Source of the DNA: a virus
Lineage: Duplodnaviria; Heunggongvirae; Uroviricota; Caudoviricetes
Reading direction: 5' to 3' (one strand)
Virus record (IMG/VR): IMGVR_UViG_2623620506_000004
DNA length: 4,411 bases
Below the pieces are notes generated by a model, which was not told where the DNA came from, searched no databases, and saw only the letters and a list, made by a program, of their open reading frames with translations. A program made the translations under genes and the position numbers. How positions within the stretch are numbered: position 1 is the first letter of the stretch; every line of letters begins with the position of its first letter. Shown piece after piece: positions 1 to 4,411 of this stretch.

Positions 1-1400
1 GATGTCGCCCCTTTGAGTTTAGTCAGCAAATCCTGCGCTACCATCTGGATATGCTCACCGGCTGCGATCGCATAATGACCAGTAGTAATGTGTTCTGTCT
101 GGCCTGTCATCAGCTTGCTGGTTCCCAGAACGCTGGTTATGTCGTTTGCCTGTACTGTTGTTGTTCTGGTTGTTGTTGTGCGTTCTTCCTGATCGCTGTT
201 AATGGTTCGTCTGGCTGAATGCTCCCTGATTTGCTGATCGGTTTCTCTGTGCCAGCTTCCGTCAGTCGTGACGCGCTGAAACACTTCTGCGCGCTGTTGC
301 TGCAGCTGTTCGCCGGGCTTTACATCAGGCAGGTTATGGCCAGCGGGTAAGATTTGCCTGATAACGGGTTTGTCCGGACGTCCTTCAATGTTGGATATTT
401 CCACGATGGTGCCTGCCGGTGGGTAGGCAAAACATCCCGCCTCACTGCCAGCCATGGGGACGGGGAGCGGTACTGCCGGGTAAACGGGCGTGTCGCTTTT
501 ATCGTTGCCGTTCTCATCAAGCAACTGCACATCGACGGCGTAGCGTGGGCGGAAACTGTCGGCCACATCGCCCAGGGTGGTGGGCTCCGTTGGCGCAATG
601 ACGCGCGCCAGCCGGGTATGTAGCGTACCGCTGGCCAGTTCCGGGAACTGTGTTTCCATTTGTCTGCGTAATGGTGATTTGGAAACAGGGCTACCCGTGG
701 CGGTAAGGCGCTCCCATGTCAGGGTCATTTTCTCGTTGTTGAGGGCTACACGGGTAATGCGCCCGGCGGGAAGATTCACGCCCGGTCGCACAGTTTCCAT
801 AAACATGATGTCGATGCTGTTTCCGCCGCTTTGCCCGAGTGTGTACTGTTGCGGAATATCCGGCATGGTAATACTGGCAAACCGTGAATCAGCTGCGCTC
901 CCCACAAATACAGAACCGTCCGGCATAGGGTGCCAGACGTAATCGCTGATACTGAATGCTCGCCCCAGTTGGCTGAGCAGTTGTGCTCCACTGGCGCTGT
1001 GGGTGATGTAGGGAGTTGGTATACTGGCATAATCCGCATCCGGAGTGATAAAAACGATACCGCTTTGTCGCCCCAGATTATCGAGTACCCCCCGCAACGT
1101 CGGGTGTTGCATGGAGCAAGGGAAATCAAAATCCAGCACAGCAGCCGCTTCACGAATAAAAAGGCGACGTGAGCCATTTTCAGCAGGTTGATCGCGCTCA
1201 ATGTAGCCGGAGAAATAGCGCCATGCTTCACCGTCACGGCCGAGATCAATTTGTACCATTGCGCCGGCAAGGCTGTGTTCGGGTGACAGATTGTTAACAG
1301 AAATGAAGCCACGACCGGCAGCATTCAGGGTAAGAACAAGGCTTATATCGGCAATTTCCACCCGTTCGCCATTAATCATGCAGCGTTGTATCAATTTCAT
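1..1400 (-). CDS. Partial CDS (start codon at 1400-1398; 466 codons in window; 3' end beyond window start). Putative tail hub/spike protein: gpD/gp27-like N-terminal region followed by a gpV/gp5/VgrG-type OB-fold.
   Basis: Hand translation of the minus strand from ATG at 1400 gives an open frame to position 3 with no stop (MKLIQRCMINGERVEIADISLVLTLNAAGRGF...); I checked residues 1-370 codon by codon. The ORF track omits it, consistent with a track that only reports ORFs closed by an in-window stop. A strong Shine-Dalgarno (GAGGAAGGGA, 1405-1414) sits just upstream, and the ATG overlaps the stop of the preceding gene (ATGA). Residues ~285-352 (...RYAVDVQLLDENGND...PMAGSEAGCFAYPPAGTIVEISNIEGRPDKPVIRQIL) fit the pattern I recall for the baseplate-spike OB-fold (Pfam Phage_base_V-like). 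The N-terminal ~280 aa loosely resemble the P2 gpD hub family as I recall it. Family assignment is from memory and motif, not from a search. Confidence 0.75.
   Translation of the reverse strand, partial: MKLIQRCMINGERVEIADISLVLTLNAAGRGFISVNNLSPEHSLAGAMVQIDLGRDGEAWRYFSGYIERDQPAENGSRRLFIREAAAVLDFDFPCSMQHPTLRGVLDNLGRQSGIVFITPDADYASIPTPYITHSASGAQLLSQLGRAFSISDYVWHPMPDGSVFVGSAADSRFASITMPDIPQQYTLGQSGGNSIDIMFMETVRPGVNLPAGRITRVALNNEKMTLTWERLTATGSPVSKSPLRRQMETQFPELASGTLHTRLARVIAPTEPTTLGDVADSFRPRYAVDVQLLDENGNDKSDTPVYPAVPLPVPMAGSEAGCFAYPPAGTIVEISNIEGRPDKPVIRQILPAGHNLPDVKPGEQLQQQRAEVFQRVTTDGSWHRETDQQIREHSARRTINSDQEERTTTTRTTTVQANDITSVLGTSKLMTGQTEHITTGHYAIAAGEHIQMVAQDLLTKLKGAT
156..180 (-). repeat. Imperfect trinucleotide tract (ACA/ACC codons on the coding strand; GTT/TGT on plus) encoding a Thr-rich linker RTTTTRTTTV in the hub/spike protein
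   Basis: Plus strand reads ctgttgttgttctggttgttgttgtg. In the coding frame this is ACA ACA ACA ACC AGA ACA ACA ACA GTA. It is an in-frame low-complexity tract lying between the OB-fold and the downstream region. Confidence 0.6.
345..548 (-). other. OB-fold motif region (gpV/gp5/VgrG-like) inside the hub/spike CDS, residues ~285-352
   Basis: Directly verified translation ...PRYAVDVQLLDENGNDKSDTPVYPAVPLPVPMAGSEAGCFAYPPAGTIVEISNIEGRPDKPVIRQILPAGH. The pattern (aromatic/Pro-rich stretch, AG-x-G, hydrophobic beta-strand V-E-I-S, G-x-PD-x-P-V-I) matches the signature of spike OB-folds as I recall it. Domain boundaries are approximate. Confidence 0.5.
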
Positions 1401-1972
1401 GTTTTCCCTTCCTCTTTCACGCTCCCGATGCCAACAGCATCCAGACCAGAGCCAACGGCATCATTGATTTTTTTCCAGAACGAACTTTGCGTATTCATGC
1501 CTTTGTCTGGTGCCTGTTCGCTACCGTTCTGGGTCTGCTGTCTGGCGATGGTTTTCTGCGAACCGCTGCGTGCGGATGCTTTCTCTGGCACGCTTAATTT
1601 TTCCCTGAGAGTAAAGGTAACCTGCCAGTGCATTTTTCCCTGTTGTTCCGTGGCATCAATGCCACCAGAAAATACCCCCTGTCGCATATTGATTGCCTTC
1701 GCGGTAGCGTTAGCAATGCGATATGTTTTTTTAGCACCGTTGCTTTCTGTTGCCTCCGCAAGCTGAAAAATACGGGTCAGAATAGCTTCATCATTAAAAT
1801 CAATAACCCCCGACACGCGCAGCTCTTTAGCCTTGTTTCCCTGCTGGGCGCTCGTGGTGCTGGTTGACTGTCCGGACATATCTTTGTCCGGTAGTTGCAT
1901 GGTGGCGCTGACGGTGATGTTGCGCAGCAGAATGGCTTCCCCGTCAAGCGCAAGGACAATCATCTGGGTCAT
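1397..1972 (-). CDS. Hypothetical protein, 191 aa; position immediately upstream of the hub gene suggests a tube-like/tube-initiator or distal-tail (Dit/gpU-like) role (speculative)
   Basis: ORF track 1397..1972 (-). Start ATG at 1972-1970 is preceded by SD AAGGGAAG (1979-1986) with a 6-nt spacer. Its stop TGA (1399-1397) overlaps the start of the hub gene (ATGA). The N-terminus MTQMIVLALDGEAIL loosely resembles the start of Hcp/tube-fold proteins; the C-terminal third is polar and low-complexity (S/Q/K/G-rich). Function is inferred from position and weak motif only. Confidence 0.7.
   Translation of the reverse strand: MTQMIVLALDGEAILLRNITVSATMQLPDKDMSGQSTSTTSAQQGNKAKELRVSGVIDFNDEAILTRIFQLAEATESNGAKKTYRIANATAKAINMRQGVFSGGIDATEQQGKMHWQVTFTLREKLSVPEKASARSGSQKTIARQQTQNGSEQAPDKGMNTQSSFWKKINDAVGSGLDAVGIGSVKEEGKT
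1405..1414 (-). promoter_or_regulatory. Shine-Dalgarno / ribosome-binding site for the hub/spike CDS
   Basis: Minus strand reads GTGAAAGAGGAAGGGAAAAC immediately 5' of ATG(1400). The purine-rich GAGGAAGGGA is complementary to the 16S rRNA 3' end and lies inside the 3' end of the preceding gene. Confidence 0.7.
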
Positions 1973-2657
1973 GTAGTGCTTCCCTTAGTGATGAGAGATT
2001 ATCGCCGACGAACAGCATCACAGCTGTAAAAACCCACTCGGGGTGTGGGATGTTTTTTTGTATCAGCACTGCAGCCTGGCTAAGGGCTCCCTTGTAGCAA
2101 AAGCGCCACACCGGGCAAAATTTTTGCCGGAGTGCGGCCTGCTGAGCAGCGATTTCCTGTAAGGCTTTATCTCTCGCATTCATGAACTGATGCAGTGATG
2201 ATGACAATGTTTCCAGTGATGTGACGGCAGGAGTGGCTGCCTGTGCAATGGTTGCCGCCAGCGACATACTGCGAGTAGTCTGTGTCGACAGCATTATCGG
2301 TTCCGGAAGTGATGTTACCGGTCTGGCGGGGATTTGCATTCTGCTGATGGTCAGTGAAAGCTGGCTGGAGATCATGCGGGACATTCGCCCCACCTCTGGC
2401 AACGGAAATGCGCCTGAAAATTGCCTGGCGAGTGATAAAAACTCGCCAGCAGAAGGGGCGCAAAATAACAGCGCCACAATGTCCTTTTCTGTGTTTTCTG
2501 TCAGATATGGCAGAAGTGCTGATATCGCATTATCCGGGCTGAGATAGCGCCCTGATGGTGTGATATTCCCGGTATTTTCTGACCACGGATGAAGGCAGAC
2601 CACTGAACAGCAGATGTTCATGGCTGCCGGACGCAGAATAGCCTTTTCCCATTTCAT
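1944..2657 (-). CDS. Hypothetical protein, 237 aa, with cysteine clusters at both termini (C16, C17, C21, H23; C181, C187; C234, C236) and an S/T/L/A-rich central region; function unknown
   Basis: ORF track 1944..2657 (-). The start ATG (2657-2655) overlaps the stop of the upstream gene (ATGA at 2657-2654), and the 3' end overlaps the next gene by 29 nt, so it exactly fills the space between two better-supported genes. Codon choice looks ordinary for an enterobacterial gene (CTG, CCG, GCG frequent). The composition is unusual, so I rate it lower than its neighbours. Confidence 0.6.
   Translation of the reverse strand: MKWEKAILRPAAMNICCSVVCLHPWSENTGNITPSGRYLSPDNAISALLPYLTENTEKDIVALLFCAPSAGEFLSLARQFSGAFPLPEVGRMSRMISSQLSLTISRMQIPARPVTSLPEPIMLSTQTTRSMSLAATIAQAATPAVTSLETLSSSLHQFMNARDKALQEIAAQQAALRQKFCPVWRFCYKGALSQAAVLIQKNIPHPEWVFTAVMLFVGDNLSSLREALHDPDDCPCA
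1979..1986 (-). promoter_or_regulatory. Shine-Dalgarno / ribosome-binding site for the 191-aa CDS
   Basis: Minus strand reads AAGGGAAG followed by a 6-nt spacer (CACTAC) and ATG(1972); it lies within the 3' end of the 237-aa CDS. Confidence 0.6.
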
Positions 2658-3226
2658 TCTGCATTGCCCACCTGAAATGTGCGAATGGTCGCAAGGTTAT
2701 CCAGGGTGACCAGTGTGTTTTTCATCTTTCGCTGGCGTTGGTAAATTTCATCATTGCGATCGACAATGGCCCTCGCCATCTCTGCGGCCAATTCCTCAAG
2801 CGCCTGCATTGACAGCTTCACTTGCTGATTATTGGCATCACCCCACGTTAGTGCAGTGCGCGCAATGCCGGATTTCGACGCCATTACCACCGGAGAAAGG
2901 CGTGCCAGTGAGTCAGGGCCAGCGTTCCAGGTTCGACCGCCCCATTCAATGATGAACTGTTGCGATTCCTGCTGCGCGCGCCATGCGTTGATTTCCCTGC
3001 GCTTTGCTGCTTTTGCAGCTTCTAGCATTTCTGGTGTGGTGGCAAACGTGGCGATCTCGCCCCATTTGCCGCTTTGCAGCTCCTGCCAGATGTGCTGGCC
3101 TGTTTCGGCTGTATCTTCTGCCGTGGCTGTGTAGGGGATGGGGGTATCCATCCCTTCAAACAAAACTTCGCAGTCAATCGCACCGCTCTCGAGATAGCGA
3201 GGTTTTTTAATTTCCTGAATATTCAT
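2654..3226 (-). CDS. Hypothetical protein, 190 aa (start at ATG 3226, not the upstream in-frame ATG at 3280); alpha/beta protein, possibly a chaperone/assembly factor for the upstream structural protein (speculative)
   Basis: ORF track 2654..3280 (-), but the ATG at 3226-3224 is preceded by SD GAGGGA (3233-3238) with a 6-nt spacer and lies 10 nt after the stop of the upstream gene (TGA 3239-3237). The ATG at 3280 would overlap the upstream gene by 44 nt and has no SD. The product MNIQEIKKPRYLESGAIDCEVLFEG... has predicted helical segments (PEMLEAAKAAKRREINAWRAQQE; QALEELAAEMARAIVDRNDEIYQRQRK). It may belong to a phage tail fiber assembly or tail assembly chaperone-like family, but I cannot confirm this without a profile search. 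Confidence 0.7.
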   Translation of the reverse strand: MNIQEIKKPRYLESGAIDCEVLFEGMDTPIPYTATAEDTAETGQHIWQELQSGKWGEIATFATTPEMLEAAKAAKRREINAWRAQQESQQFIIEWGGRTWNAGPDSLARLSPVVMASKSGIARTALTWGDANNQQVKLSMQALEELAAEMARAIVDRNDEIYQRQRKMKNTLVTLDNLATIRTFQVGNAE

Positions 3227-3232
3227 TTGCAG

Positions 3233-3238
3233 TCCCTC
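3233..3238 (-). promoter_or_regulatory. Shine-Dalgarno / ribosome-binding site for the 190-aa CDS
   Basis: Minus strand reads TGAGGGACTGCAAATG. GAGGGA overlaps the TGA stop of the upstream CDS and sits 6 nt upstream of ATG(3226). Confidence 0.6.
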
Positions 3239-4411
3239 ATGCAGTTCTGACAAACAGACCAACCAGTGCGCTGTCGCCACGAGCGTTATCCGCTGCTCCG
3301 TTTAGTGCAATGTAAGCGCCTGGTAAACTCCATCCCCGACATCCTCTTGTCGTTATTAAAGGCGTTGCTGTGGCAACATTTTCCCTGTCACTTGGAATTG
3401 CAATGGACAGTGGCGTCAGAGACGACCCCGGGTAGGCATAACCGCGTGTCATGCTGATATTGGTGTCTCCGTCAGCGGTCCCCTGGTATGCTGCCAGAAT
3501 CAGTCCACCGACGTCCGGGTCTCCAAGACTTGTTGGAGCAATGCGTGCAGACAAGATGTCAGCAAAATCGACGCCTTTTAAATTCAGCTTTACCCAGCCA
3601 GAAAACTGGCTGCCAGCGAGTCGGTTATAGAAAATTTCTCCGTTAACACCGTAAAAAGTAACCACTTTACCCTTGTTATCAGGACTGGCATTGCTGGCAA
3701 CTGTATCGGGGATTTTGATATCAACTATCCCCGTAAAAACAACACCTTTAATAATTGGGTTATACCTGTTAACACTACCATATTGAGTTACCGCATATTG
3801 ACCTGGATTGGTGTTTTTGACCCACTCCAGAAACTCTGTTGGCCCGTTTCCGGAACTAAACGATTCTGATGAGCGGAAGATAGCTCCGTATCCGAATGCA
3901 CCGGGTATTGCCAGGCGGCCTTCGGTACGGTCGTAAATGTCTGTTTGCACATCCATCGTGGCGGCGCTTTTCAGTCCCAGATTATCGCGGGATTCCCGCT
4001 GAGCATCTTCCCCCCCTGCTGCAATTTCTGACAAACGGTTAGGGATTTTCAGCATTGATTTCAGCTCTGGGTAAAGATCTGTCTGCCAGCTCTGCGGAGG
4101 AACGGTAATTTGCGCAGCCTTAGCAATACCACTGTATATAATCGTGAAATTACGAATAAGTGACTCACCTGTTACTTTTTGTCGAACAGGTGTTTTTATT
4201 ACGCCACATAGTGTTCCACTGGTCTGATGGATGAGGCAAATCCAGTCATAGCTGAATGCACAGTCATCAGGAACAACTGCGCTACACACAATATTGTCCG
4301 GGCTTAACTGGCCGTAGGTCAGTTCATTCACAGCATATGTGATTTTTTCTTCCGGAACGGTATTATCTTCGCGTGTTGGTTCCCGCTCCATCAGGGCAAA
4401 AATAATAGTGT
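3237..4411 (-). CDS. Partial CDS (5' end beyond window end; at least 391 codons in window): beta-rich structural protein, candidate tail fiber/receptor-binding protein or major tail protein; role unresolved
   Basis: ORF track 3237..4391 (-) starts at an internal Met. The same frame stays open upstream to the window edge (codons 4392-4409 read ...TIIFAL before MEREPTRE) and no SD precedes the ATG at 4391, so the true start is probably outside the window. Stop is TGA at 3239-3237. The composition is rich in G/S/T/N/Y/V with few charged helical stretches (e.g. GQYAVTQYGSVNRYNPIIKGVVFTGIVDIKIPDTVASNASPDNKGKVVTFYGVNGEIFYNRLAGSQFSGWVKLNLKG), typical of beta-structured virion proteins. Confidence 0.75.
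   Translation of the reverse strand, partial: TIIFALMEREPTREDNTVPEEKITYAVNELTYGQLSPDNIVCSAVVPDDCAFSYDWICLIHQTSGTLCGVIKTPVRQKVTGESLIRNFTIIYSGIAKAAQITVPPQSWQTDLYPELKSMLKIPNRLSEIAAGGEDAQRESRDNLGLKSAATMDVQTDIYDRTEGRLAIPGAFGYGAIFRSSESFSSGNGPTEFLEWVKNTNPGQYAVTQYGSVNRYNPIIKGVVFTGIVDIKIPDTVASNASPDNKGKVVTFYGVNGEIFYNRLAGSQFSGWVKLNLKGVDFADILSARIAPTSLGDPDVGGLILAAYQGTADGDTNISMTRGYAYPGSSLTPLSIAIPSDRENVATATPLITTRGCRGWSLPGAYIALNGAADNARGDSALVGLFVRTA

Follow-up and report, generated by a model that had tools for sequence, protein, structure and literature searches.

Five coupled genes from an Escherichia coli prophage most probably form the distal end of an HP1-like tail operon

Introduction

The late operon of the Haemophilus phages HP1 and HP2 (Hpunavirus, Peduoviridae) ends with the genes orf31 to orf35, which encode a fibre, a fibre-associated protein and the products of orf33, orf34 and orf35. 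In HP2, orf33 and orf34 overlap, and orf27, a gene of tape-measure size [709 amino acids (aa)], lies upstream of the wedge genes. The same succession of genes (gpH, gpG, gp033, gp034, gp035) is present in Yersinia phage vB_YenM_324 (Tresduoquattuorvirus). A literature search on HP1 orf34, vB_YenM_324, K139 and the Hpunavirus baseplate yielded nothing relevant in the library searched.

Here we analyze a stretch of viral DNA of 4,411 nucleotides (nt), referred to as the window, from the Caudoviricetes record IMGVR_UViG_2623620506_000004 of IMG/VR. The window contains five open reading frames (ORFs), all on the minus strand, which are named g1 to g5 in the 5' to 3' direction of that strand. In a preliminary description, based only on the letters of the window and a list of its ORFs, these genes were read as a tail-tip-like operon from which the tape measure gene was missing. 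Our results are mainly a correction of that description: very probably, the window is the promoter-distal part of a late tail operon that belongs to a temperate, HP1-like myovirus (Peduoviridae) residing as a prophage in Escherichia coli.

Results

Synteny with HP1-like phages

The last three genes of the window (g3, g4, and g5) are homologous to orf33, orf34, and orf35 of HP2, with identities of 21, 37, and 42% and E-values of 7e-14, 5e-37, and 1e-125, respectively (BLASTP). In the window, in HP2 and in vB_YenM_324, homologues of orf33 and orf35 flank ORF34 directly upstream and downstream on the same strand. In tblastn searches, homologues of g4 and of g5 were each found in 75 HP1-like phage records; the genus counts for the two genes match and the record lists overlap. 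This set includes HP1, HP2, K139, Kappa, F108, phiO18P, ESSI-2, SW3, and SI7 as well as phages of Vibrio, Pseudomonas, and Pseudoalteromonas. The closest isolated phages are vB_YenM_324, the Salmonella phages SW3 and SI7 and the ESSI-2-like phages of Cronobacter and Escherichia, in which the identity is about 50% for g4, 49-52% for g5, and 30-34% for g3. None of the isolated phages in the phage collection exceeded approximately 50% amino acid identity for g4 and g5. This large divergence from the vB_YenM_324-type phages indicates that the window belongs to an E. coli prophage lineage without an isolated representative in the phage collection searched.

Parent prophage and tape measure

Near-identical sequences are already present in public assemblies. 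An exact look-up of the g3 protein retrieved four contigs (L007-L010), to which all 4411 nt of the window aligned with 99.1-99.6% identity and 0 gaps (positions 12657->8247). The chromosomal flank in L009 matches that of E. coli with 100% identity. For the genes upstream of the window these four contigs were used, and the sheath and head genes were read in E. coli prophages with approximately 91-94% nt identity.

In L007-L010 the gene order starts with an HP1-type tube gene (PF10772), a holin and an M15 peptidase (lysin), followed by a tail assembly chaperone (PF10963), a 48-aa ORF annotated as DUF6890 and a 698-aa tape measure (PF10145). After the tape measure come a DUF2590 protein (gpW-like), a Baseplate_J protein (gpJ-like) and a 211-aa gpI-like protein, and then fibre 1 (566 aa; PF12571 and PF03406) and a Caudo_TAP protein (183 aa). 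The order ends with the genes of the window, which are fibre 2 (416 aa), a DUF4376 protein (190 aa), a 237-aa protein, HP1_ORF34 (191 aa), and a 565-aa protein, and a terminator-like hairpin is located 40 nt 3' of the stop codon of the latter gene (orf35). In the prophages with 91-94% identity, a DUF2586 protein occupies the sheath position, which is the slot of the tail-sheath gene orf23 in HP2, and P2-type portal, terminase, scaffold, capsid, and head-completion genes are present together with ogr and replication genes.

The tape measure gene ends about 4.4 kb before fibre 2 begins, i.e., about 4.5 kb outside the window. With 698 aa, compared to 815 aa for gpT of P2, this tape measure is not short. 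The 3' end of the tail chaperone gene reads GTA AAA AAA TAA and contains a -1 slippery site (A AAA AAA), and the -1 frame continues without a stop through the DUF6890 ORF as far as the start of the tape measure gene (L009 1187-1668). As read from the DNA, the layout of chaperone, DUF6890 ORF, and tape measure is the classical chaperone frameshift arrangement. Because the -1 frame stays open to the tape measure start codon, the DUF6890 ORF probably does not stand alone as a gene but extends the tail chaperone by frameshifting.

These upstream genes bear directly on the first interpretation given in the preliminary description, according to which the five genes form a complete module of tube or sheath, tail chaperone, a short tape measure of 237 aa, distal tail protein and hub, belonging to a phage with a very short tail or to a particle derived from a phage. 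In its favour are the lack of a long tape measure gene in the 4.4-kb window and the long helices predicted in g3. We now give it next to no probability. The 99%-identical contigs contain the 698-aa PF10145 tape measure and its frameshifting chaperone upstream, a finding that the preliminary description had itself named as refuting it; g1 is a tail-collar fibre (PF12571) and g2 a DUF4376 fibre chaperone instead of tube or sheath and tail chaperone; g3 matches no tape measure family; and HP2 has orf33 and nevertheless also carries the 709-aa orf27 in the tape measure position. The statement that a tape measure gene is missing is correct for the window and incorrect for the element, and the chaperone frameshift that seemed to be missing is found upstream of the window. 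Since the window starts inside a fibre gene, the tape measure seemed to be missing from an ordinary HP1-type tail operon, which is an artefact of the window edge. The second order put forward in the preliminary description (fibre, fibre chaperone, unknown, tube initiator, hub) holds for each of the five genes. It was considered unusual there, but is canonical in HP1-like Peduoviridae, as seen in HP1, HP2, and vB_YenM_324 and in the ORF34/orf35 pair of the 75 records.

A second explanation is that the module derives from a decayed prophage remnant or a domesticated tailocin and that there is no functional phage. In one relative (L001) fibre 2 has decayed to pseudogene fragments, the window itself shows the tail end only, and the nearest isolated phages in the collection are at the level of about 50% amino acid identity for g4 and g5, all of which would fit such a remnant. 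We nevertheless consider a remnant or tailocin origin very unlikely, as none of the five ORFs is disrupted within the window, the relatives possess complete sets of genes for the head, packaging, lysis, replication, and regulation, and near-identical copies of the prophage are located at no fewer than three different E. coli chromosomal sites (raiA-bamD, pgsA-uvrC, and flk-fabB), which implies recent mobility. The cargo found after orf35 also varies among copies (L007-L010 beyond position 12955, and L001-L003) and comprises Hok/Gef, Com with a DNA methyltransferase, a YafO toxin, and an AAA-type ATP-dependent nuclease.

Fibre 2 and its DUF4376 chaperone

The window truncates the first gene, g1 (3237..4411, minus strand), at its 5' end. 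The preliminary description started this gene at the ATG at position 4391, which gave a protein of 384 aa. However, no stop codon interrupts the frame between this ATG and the window edge, TIIFAL being encoded by the codons upstream, and the ATG at 4391 specifies an internal methionine. In the 99%-identical contigs the true start is located 76 nt beyond position 4411, the protein is 416 aa long and the methionine at 4391 is residue 33; the 416-aa fibre-2 gene is called at 8171-9421 in L007-L010. Full-length relatives of g1 read ...PDAIIFALMEREPTRED. The g1 protein matches the tail-collar family PF12571 with 26.9 bits (cut-off 23), and the match begins at profile position 42 because the window cuts g1. 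Residues 106-383 match phrog_2636 (tail fibre) with an E-value of 2e-73, and the C-terminal part resembles fibres of phiP27, Rac-SA53, SerU-LTIIb, and Av-05. By these matches g1 is identified as a second tail fibre, which is anchored by an N-terminal tail-collar domain and has a variable C-terminal part for receptor binding.

The second gene, g2 (2654..3226, minus strand; 190 aa), matches PF14301 (DUF4376) with 59.4 bits (cut-off 25) and phrog_1141 with an E-value of 1e-79. In the unrelated phages phiP27, Rac-SA53, SerU-LTIIb (stf/stf2), and Av-05, its homologues directly follow a fibre gene that matches the C-terminal part of g1. The DUF4376 proteins of the Alteromonas phages V22 and A5 serve as fibre chaperones, and the function of the CJIE1 H-fibre requires such a protein (PMC10579305; PMC7882524). 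By homology and gene position, g2 is identified as the DUF4376 tail-fibre assembly chaperone of fibre 2; a need for the chaperone in fibre trimerisation or function has been shown for other DUF4376 proteins (PMC7882524; PMC10579305).

The identity to E. coli relatives is 55-58% for g1 and 63-72% for g2 versus 93-99% for g3 to g5. This combination of variable g1 and g2 with conserved g3 to g5 is typical of a swapped receptor-binding cassette. Two complete fibre and chaperone cassettes are arranged in tandem (window 2654-4411; L007 5910-10004), with fibre 1 and the Caudo_TAP gene preceding fibre 2 and the DUF4376 gene. The tail-collar N-terminal anchor is common to both fibres, with about 34% identity over about 130 aa in relatives. 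What sets this E. coli sub-lineage apart is a single feature, the second fibre and DUF4376 cassette, which is inserted between the first tail-fibre assembly (Tfa) gene and orf33.

Within g2, a segment of 465 nt (2721-3185) shows 80% DNA identity to a record named Actinobacillus phage vB_Apl-pPE4, and the fibre/DUF4376 pair of that phage resembles the pair of E. coli phage Rac-SA53. This likeness points to either a cross-family cassette exchange or an E. coli-type phage recorded under another host.

The orf33 family

The protein encoded by g3 (1944..2657, minus strand; 237 aa) is homologous to gp033 of vB_YenM_324 (E-value 8e-34) and to HP2 orf33, both of which are encoded at the same position. 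It matches phrog_31292 and phrog_1677, which are both labelled as unknown function. No family in Pfam or NCBIfam was matched, no tape measure was found among Pfam, PHROGs, or NCBIfam, and sequence and profile searches against PDB chains were empty, and no fold relatives were detected. A full HMMER scan of a library of 1.8 billion proteins showed that the family comprises 149 cluster representatives, mostly of 230-300 aa. We conclude from these homologies that g3 is a conserved, lineage-specific protein of the HP1 orf33 family.

Four residues (C17, H23, C181, and H205) are invariant in close relatives of g3 and were considered as possible metal ligands. Metal binding was rejected, since across 104 sequences from the whole family only 7-64% retain these residues. 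Longer relatives of g3 were checked for extra or fused domains in Pfam and PHROGs, and no Pfam domain was found. One of them (P0188, 527 aa) has an orf33-like C-terminal domain preceded by an Ala/Thr/Gly-rich repeat region of about 300 aa that has no family match. In another protein (P0177, 323 aa) an N-terminal piece of orf33 is joined to the C-terminus of orf35; judging from its two parts, it looks like a deletion fusion across ORF34.

As g3 matches no known structural family or fold and is the least conserved of g3 to g5 (93-95% versus 98-99% identity to E. coli relatives), it might be a non-structural moron, i.e., a cargo gene located between the fibre cassette and the hub genes. We regard a moron as very improbable. 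Homologues of g3 immediately precede ORF34, as g3 does here, in HP1, HP2, ESSI-2, SW3, SI7, and vB_YenM_324, and the overlap with orf34 is also seen in HP2 and vB_YenM_324. No promoter-like sites were detected in the window and therefore none before g3, the GC content of g3 is unremarkable, and gp033 of vB_YenM_324 is labelled as structural protein (the basis of that label is unverified). A structural or assembly role of orf33 is the interpretation we prefer to cargo. Because orf33 always adjoins ORF34 and overlaps the ORF34 gene in the window, in HP2 and in vB_YenM_324, a role at the hub is favoured: the protein would most likely be a baseplate-hub component or an assembly factor. That orf33 is a previously unrecognised hub component or hub-assembly factor of the HP1 lineage is put forward as a tentative proposal, one that may well turn out otherwise; it might replace the LysM 'glue' protein (P2 gpX/T4 gp53). 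We are similarly tentative about a separate proposal, namely that both fibre and chaperone cassettes of this E. coli sub-lineage may be complete and share the tail-collar anchor, which would give one baseplate two receptor specificities.

ORF34 and orf35

The protein encoded by g4 (1397..1972, minus strand; 191 aa) belongs to PF25759 (HP1 ORF34 baseplate complex protein), which it matches with 182.2 bits (cut-off 27; E-value 1e-53) over residues 2-175 of 191. Sequence and profile searches of g4 against the PDB gave nothing relevant. In an AlphaFold 2 (AF2) model, the core (residues 50-125) has a predicted local distance difference test (pLDDT) score of about 90 and shows a beta-sandwich-plus-helix layout. 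A BFVD search returned DNA-circularisation (Mu N), Dit-like, and tube proteins. The model has the tail-tube fold and is closest to ripcord and tube-initiator proteins, which suggests that g4 is probably a tube initiator or ripcord, the class that comprises T4 gp48/gp54, P2 gpU, pyocin PA0626, and Mu N. Homologues of ORF34 are annotated as adenine glycosylase (vB_YenM_324 and SMHB1), as nucleoid DNA-binding protein (Pseudomonas phage phi3) or as DNA-binding protein; these labels do not fit because the fold found here is that of a tail tube.

The last gene, g5 (1..1400, minus strand), is cut at its 3' end, and 466 of its 565 codons are inside the window. The 466 aa share 98.5% identity with E. 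coli prophage proteins of 565 aa, and phrog_2258 (baseplate protein) is matched with an E-value of 8e-207. The oligonucleotide/oligosaccharide-binding (OB) domain of gpV/VgrG (PF04717) was matched in all 18 family members analyzed, at residues ~310-347 (best E-value 7e-5), and weak beta-helix matches were found to Gp5_trimer_C (6 of the 18) and Gp5_C (2 of the 18). Searches against PDB chains with g5 gave nothing beyond weak matches of the OB stretch to VgrG1 and Pvc8 chains (E-values 0.06-0.7). An HxH motif at residues 532-534, which are located outside the window, is invariant in 18 out of 18 full-length relatives. In the spike of P2 gpV, such a motif forms the metal-loaded tip. Taken together, g5 appears to encode the gpV/VgrG-like hub/central spike of the HP1 orf35 family, in which the N-terminus would be the hub part. 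The tube-like and hub/spike character assigned earlier to the fourth and fifth gene agrees with the ORF34 fold and its BFVD matches and with the family-wide PF04717 matches, respectively.

In K139, Kappa, F108, SMHB1, and several Vibrio phages, the records either split the orf35 region into two ORFs or match the query over residues 1-389 only. Some lineages may thus encode the hub part and the distal spike part in separate genes.

Gene junctions and signals

Re-reading of the window reproduced the five same-strand genes and their junctions as described before. The junction between g1 and g2 consists of a TGA stop codon, a 10-nt spacer (3227..3236, minus strand) and an ATG. The spacer was read directly as CATGAGGGACTGCAAATG, and a Shine-Dalgarno (SD)-like GAGGGA site extends across the stop codon. 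Both g2/g3 (2657-2654) and g4/g5 (1400-1397) are coupled by an ATGA, and g3 and g4 share 29 nt (1972-1944). A purine-rich SD-like stretch is present 5-10 nt 5' of every start codon. The relatives with approximately 91-94% nt identity repeat the same junction types, and the orf33/orf34 overlap recurs in HP2 and in Yersinia phage vB_YenM_324, so the junctions do not result from chance.

The number of sigma-70-like promoters in the window was 0, compared to 3.7 expected from shuffled sequences, and scans of the window detected no tRNA, no Rfam family, and no notable repeat. ORFs on the plus strand (up to 126 aa) were taken as antisense shadows of the minus-strand genes. Inside g3 lies a short GC-rich hairpin (CCCAC-N7-GTGGG, 2033-2049) followed by a T-run on both strands; it has a terminator-like score, is located about 60 nt upstream of the ORF34 start, and contains 5 stem pairs only.

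Discussion

The family assignments and synteny described above allow a model to be proposed for the tail tip of this phage. Fibre 2 would dock on the baseplate with its tail-collar N-terminus and bind the receptor with its C-terminal part, after being folded and trimerised by the DUF4376 chaperone. ORF34, as tube initiator or ripcord, would probably form a ring between the hub and the first layer of tube and tape measure, and in that role it would be the functional counterpart of P2 gpU and pyocin PA0626. The orf35 protein would be VgrG-like, with an N-terminal region of about 300 aa acting as a gp27/gpD-like hub, followed by a gpV/gp5-type OB fold, a beta-helix, and the HxH apex. The tight coupling of the genes would give co-translation of the parts that assemble into the tail tip. 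Tail length would be set by the upstream 698-aa tape measure with its frameshifting chaperone, and with this ordinary tape measure the particle is expected to have a normal long contractile tail.

Several observations weigh against this model. A sequence link to P2 gpU, gpV, and gpD is absent in hhalign comparisons (probabilities below 1%), including 0.1% for g4 against gpU and a negative result for g5 against gpD. The part of g5 encoded in the window scores 16.1 bits against PF04717, below the gathering score of 23.8, and its N-terminal 300 aa have no assigned fold. The literature searches yielded no virion proteomics or structure of any HP1-like baseplate. As no sequence similarity to gpU, gpV, or gpD was detected, the functional equivalences rest on fold and domain evidence and not on family membership.

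The analysis provides a reasoned functional map for the long-unannotated genes orf33 to orf35 of HP1, with orf34 as a putative tube-fold initiator or ripcord and orf35 as a putative VgrG-like hub-spike. It also shows that an E. coli prophage lineage of the Peduoviridae has a double receptor-binding cassette, which could matter for host-range prediction and for the engineering of tailocins and phages. If the two cassettes with the same anchor are both used, a single baseplate would carry two receptor specificities.

Compared to HP1 and HP2, the locus differs in its host, which is E. coli, and in the extra cassette of fibre 2 and DUF4376 between the Tfa gene and orf33, whereas vB_YenM_324 and HP2 have a single fibre cassette. 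The fibre sequences are also unrelated to those of HP1 and HP2 past the N-terminal anchor. With P2 and the R2 pyocin the phage has in common the virion plan and the type of head genes. ORF34 shares its fold class with the pyocin ripcord PA0626, a gpU homologue. The putative OB domain of orf35 would be of the gpV type, and the HxH apex motif of orf35 resembles that of the P2 gpV spike. The gene order is different: the P2 tail genes run gpT-gpU-gpX-gpD and gpV-gpW-gpJ-gpI-gpH-gpG, with the hub genes U and D behind the tape measure and the spike gene V ahead of the wedge genes, whereas here the hub and spike genes come last, behind the fibres. Moreover, a single polypeptide comprises both the spike and the presumed hub here, and no LysM gpX-like gene was seen.

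The second cassette resembles the fibre and DUF4376 cassettes of Alteromonas phage V22 (gp26/gp27), of the Campylobacter CJIE1 H-fibre and of phiP27, Rac-SA53, and SerU-LTIIb (stf/stf2), in which a DUF4376 gene of about 190 aa directly follows the fibre gene (PMC10579305; PMC7882524). In phiP27, Rac-SA53, and SerU, the g2 homologues are 68-74% identical and the fibres are 38-42% identical to the C-terminal part of g1. Unlike in those phages, the cassette described here is built on a Peduoviridae tail-collar N-terminal anchor and is the second one, located behind a fibre and Caudo_TAP pair.

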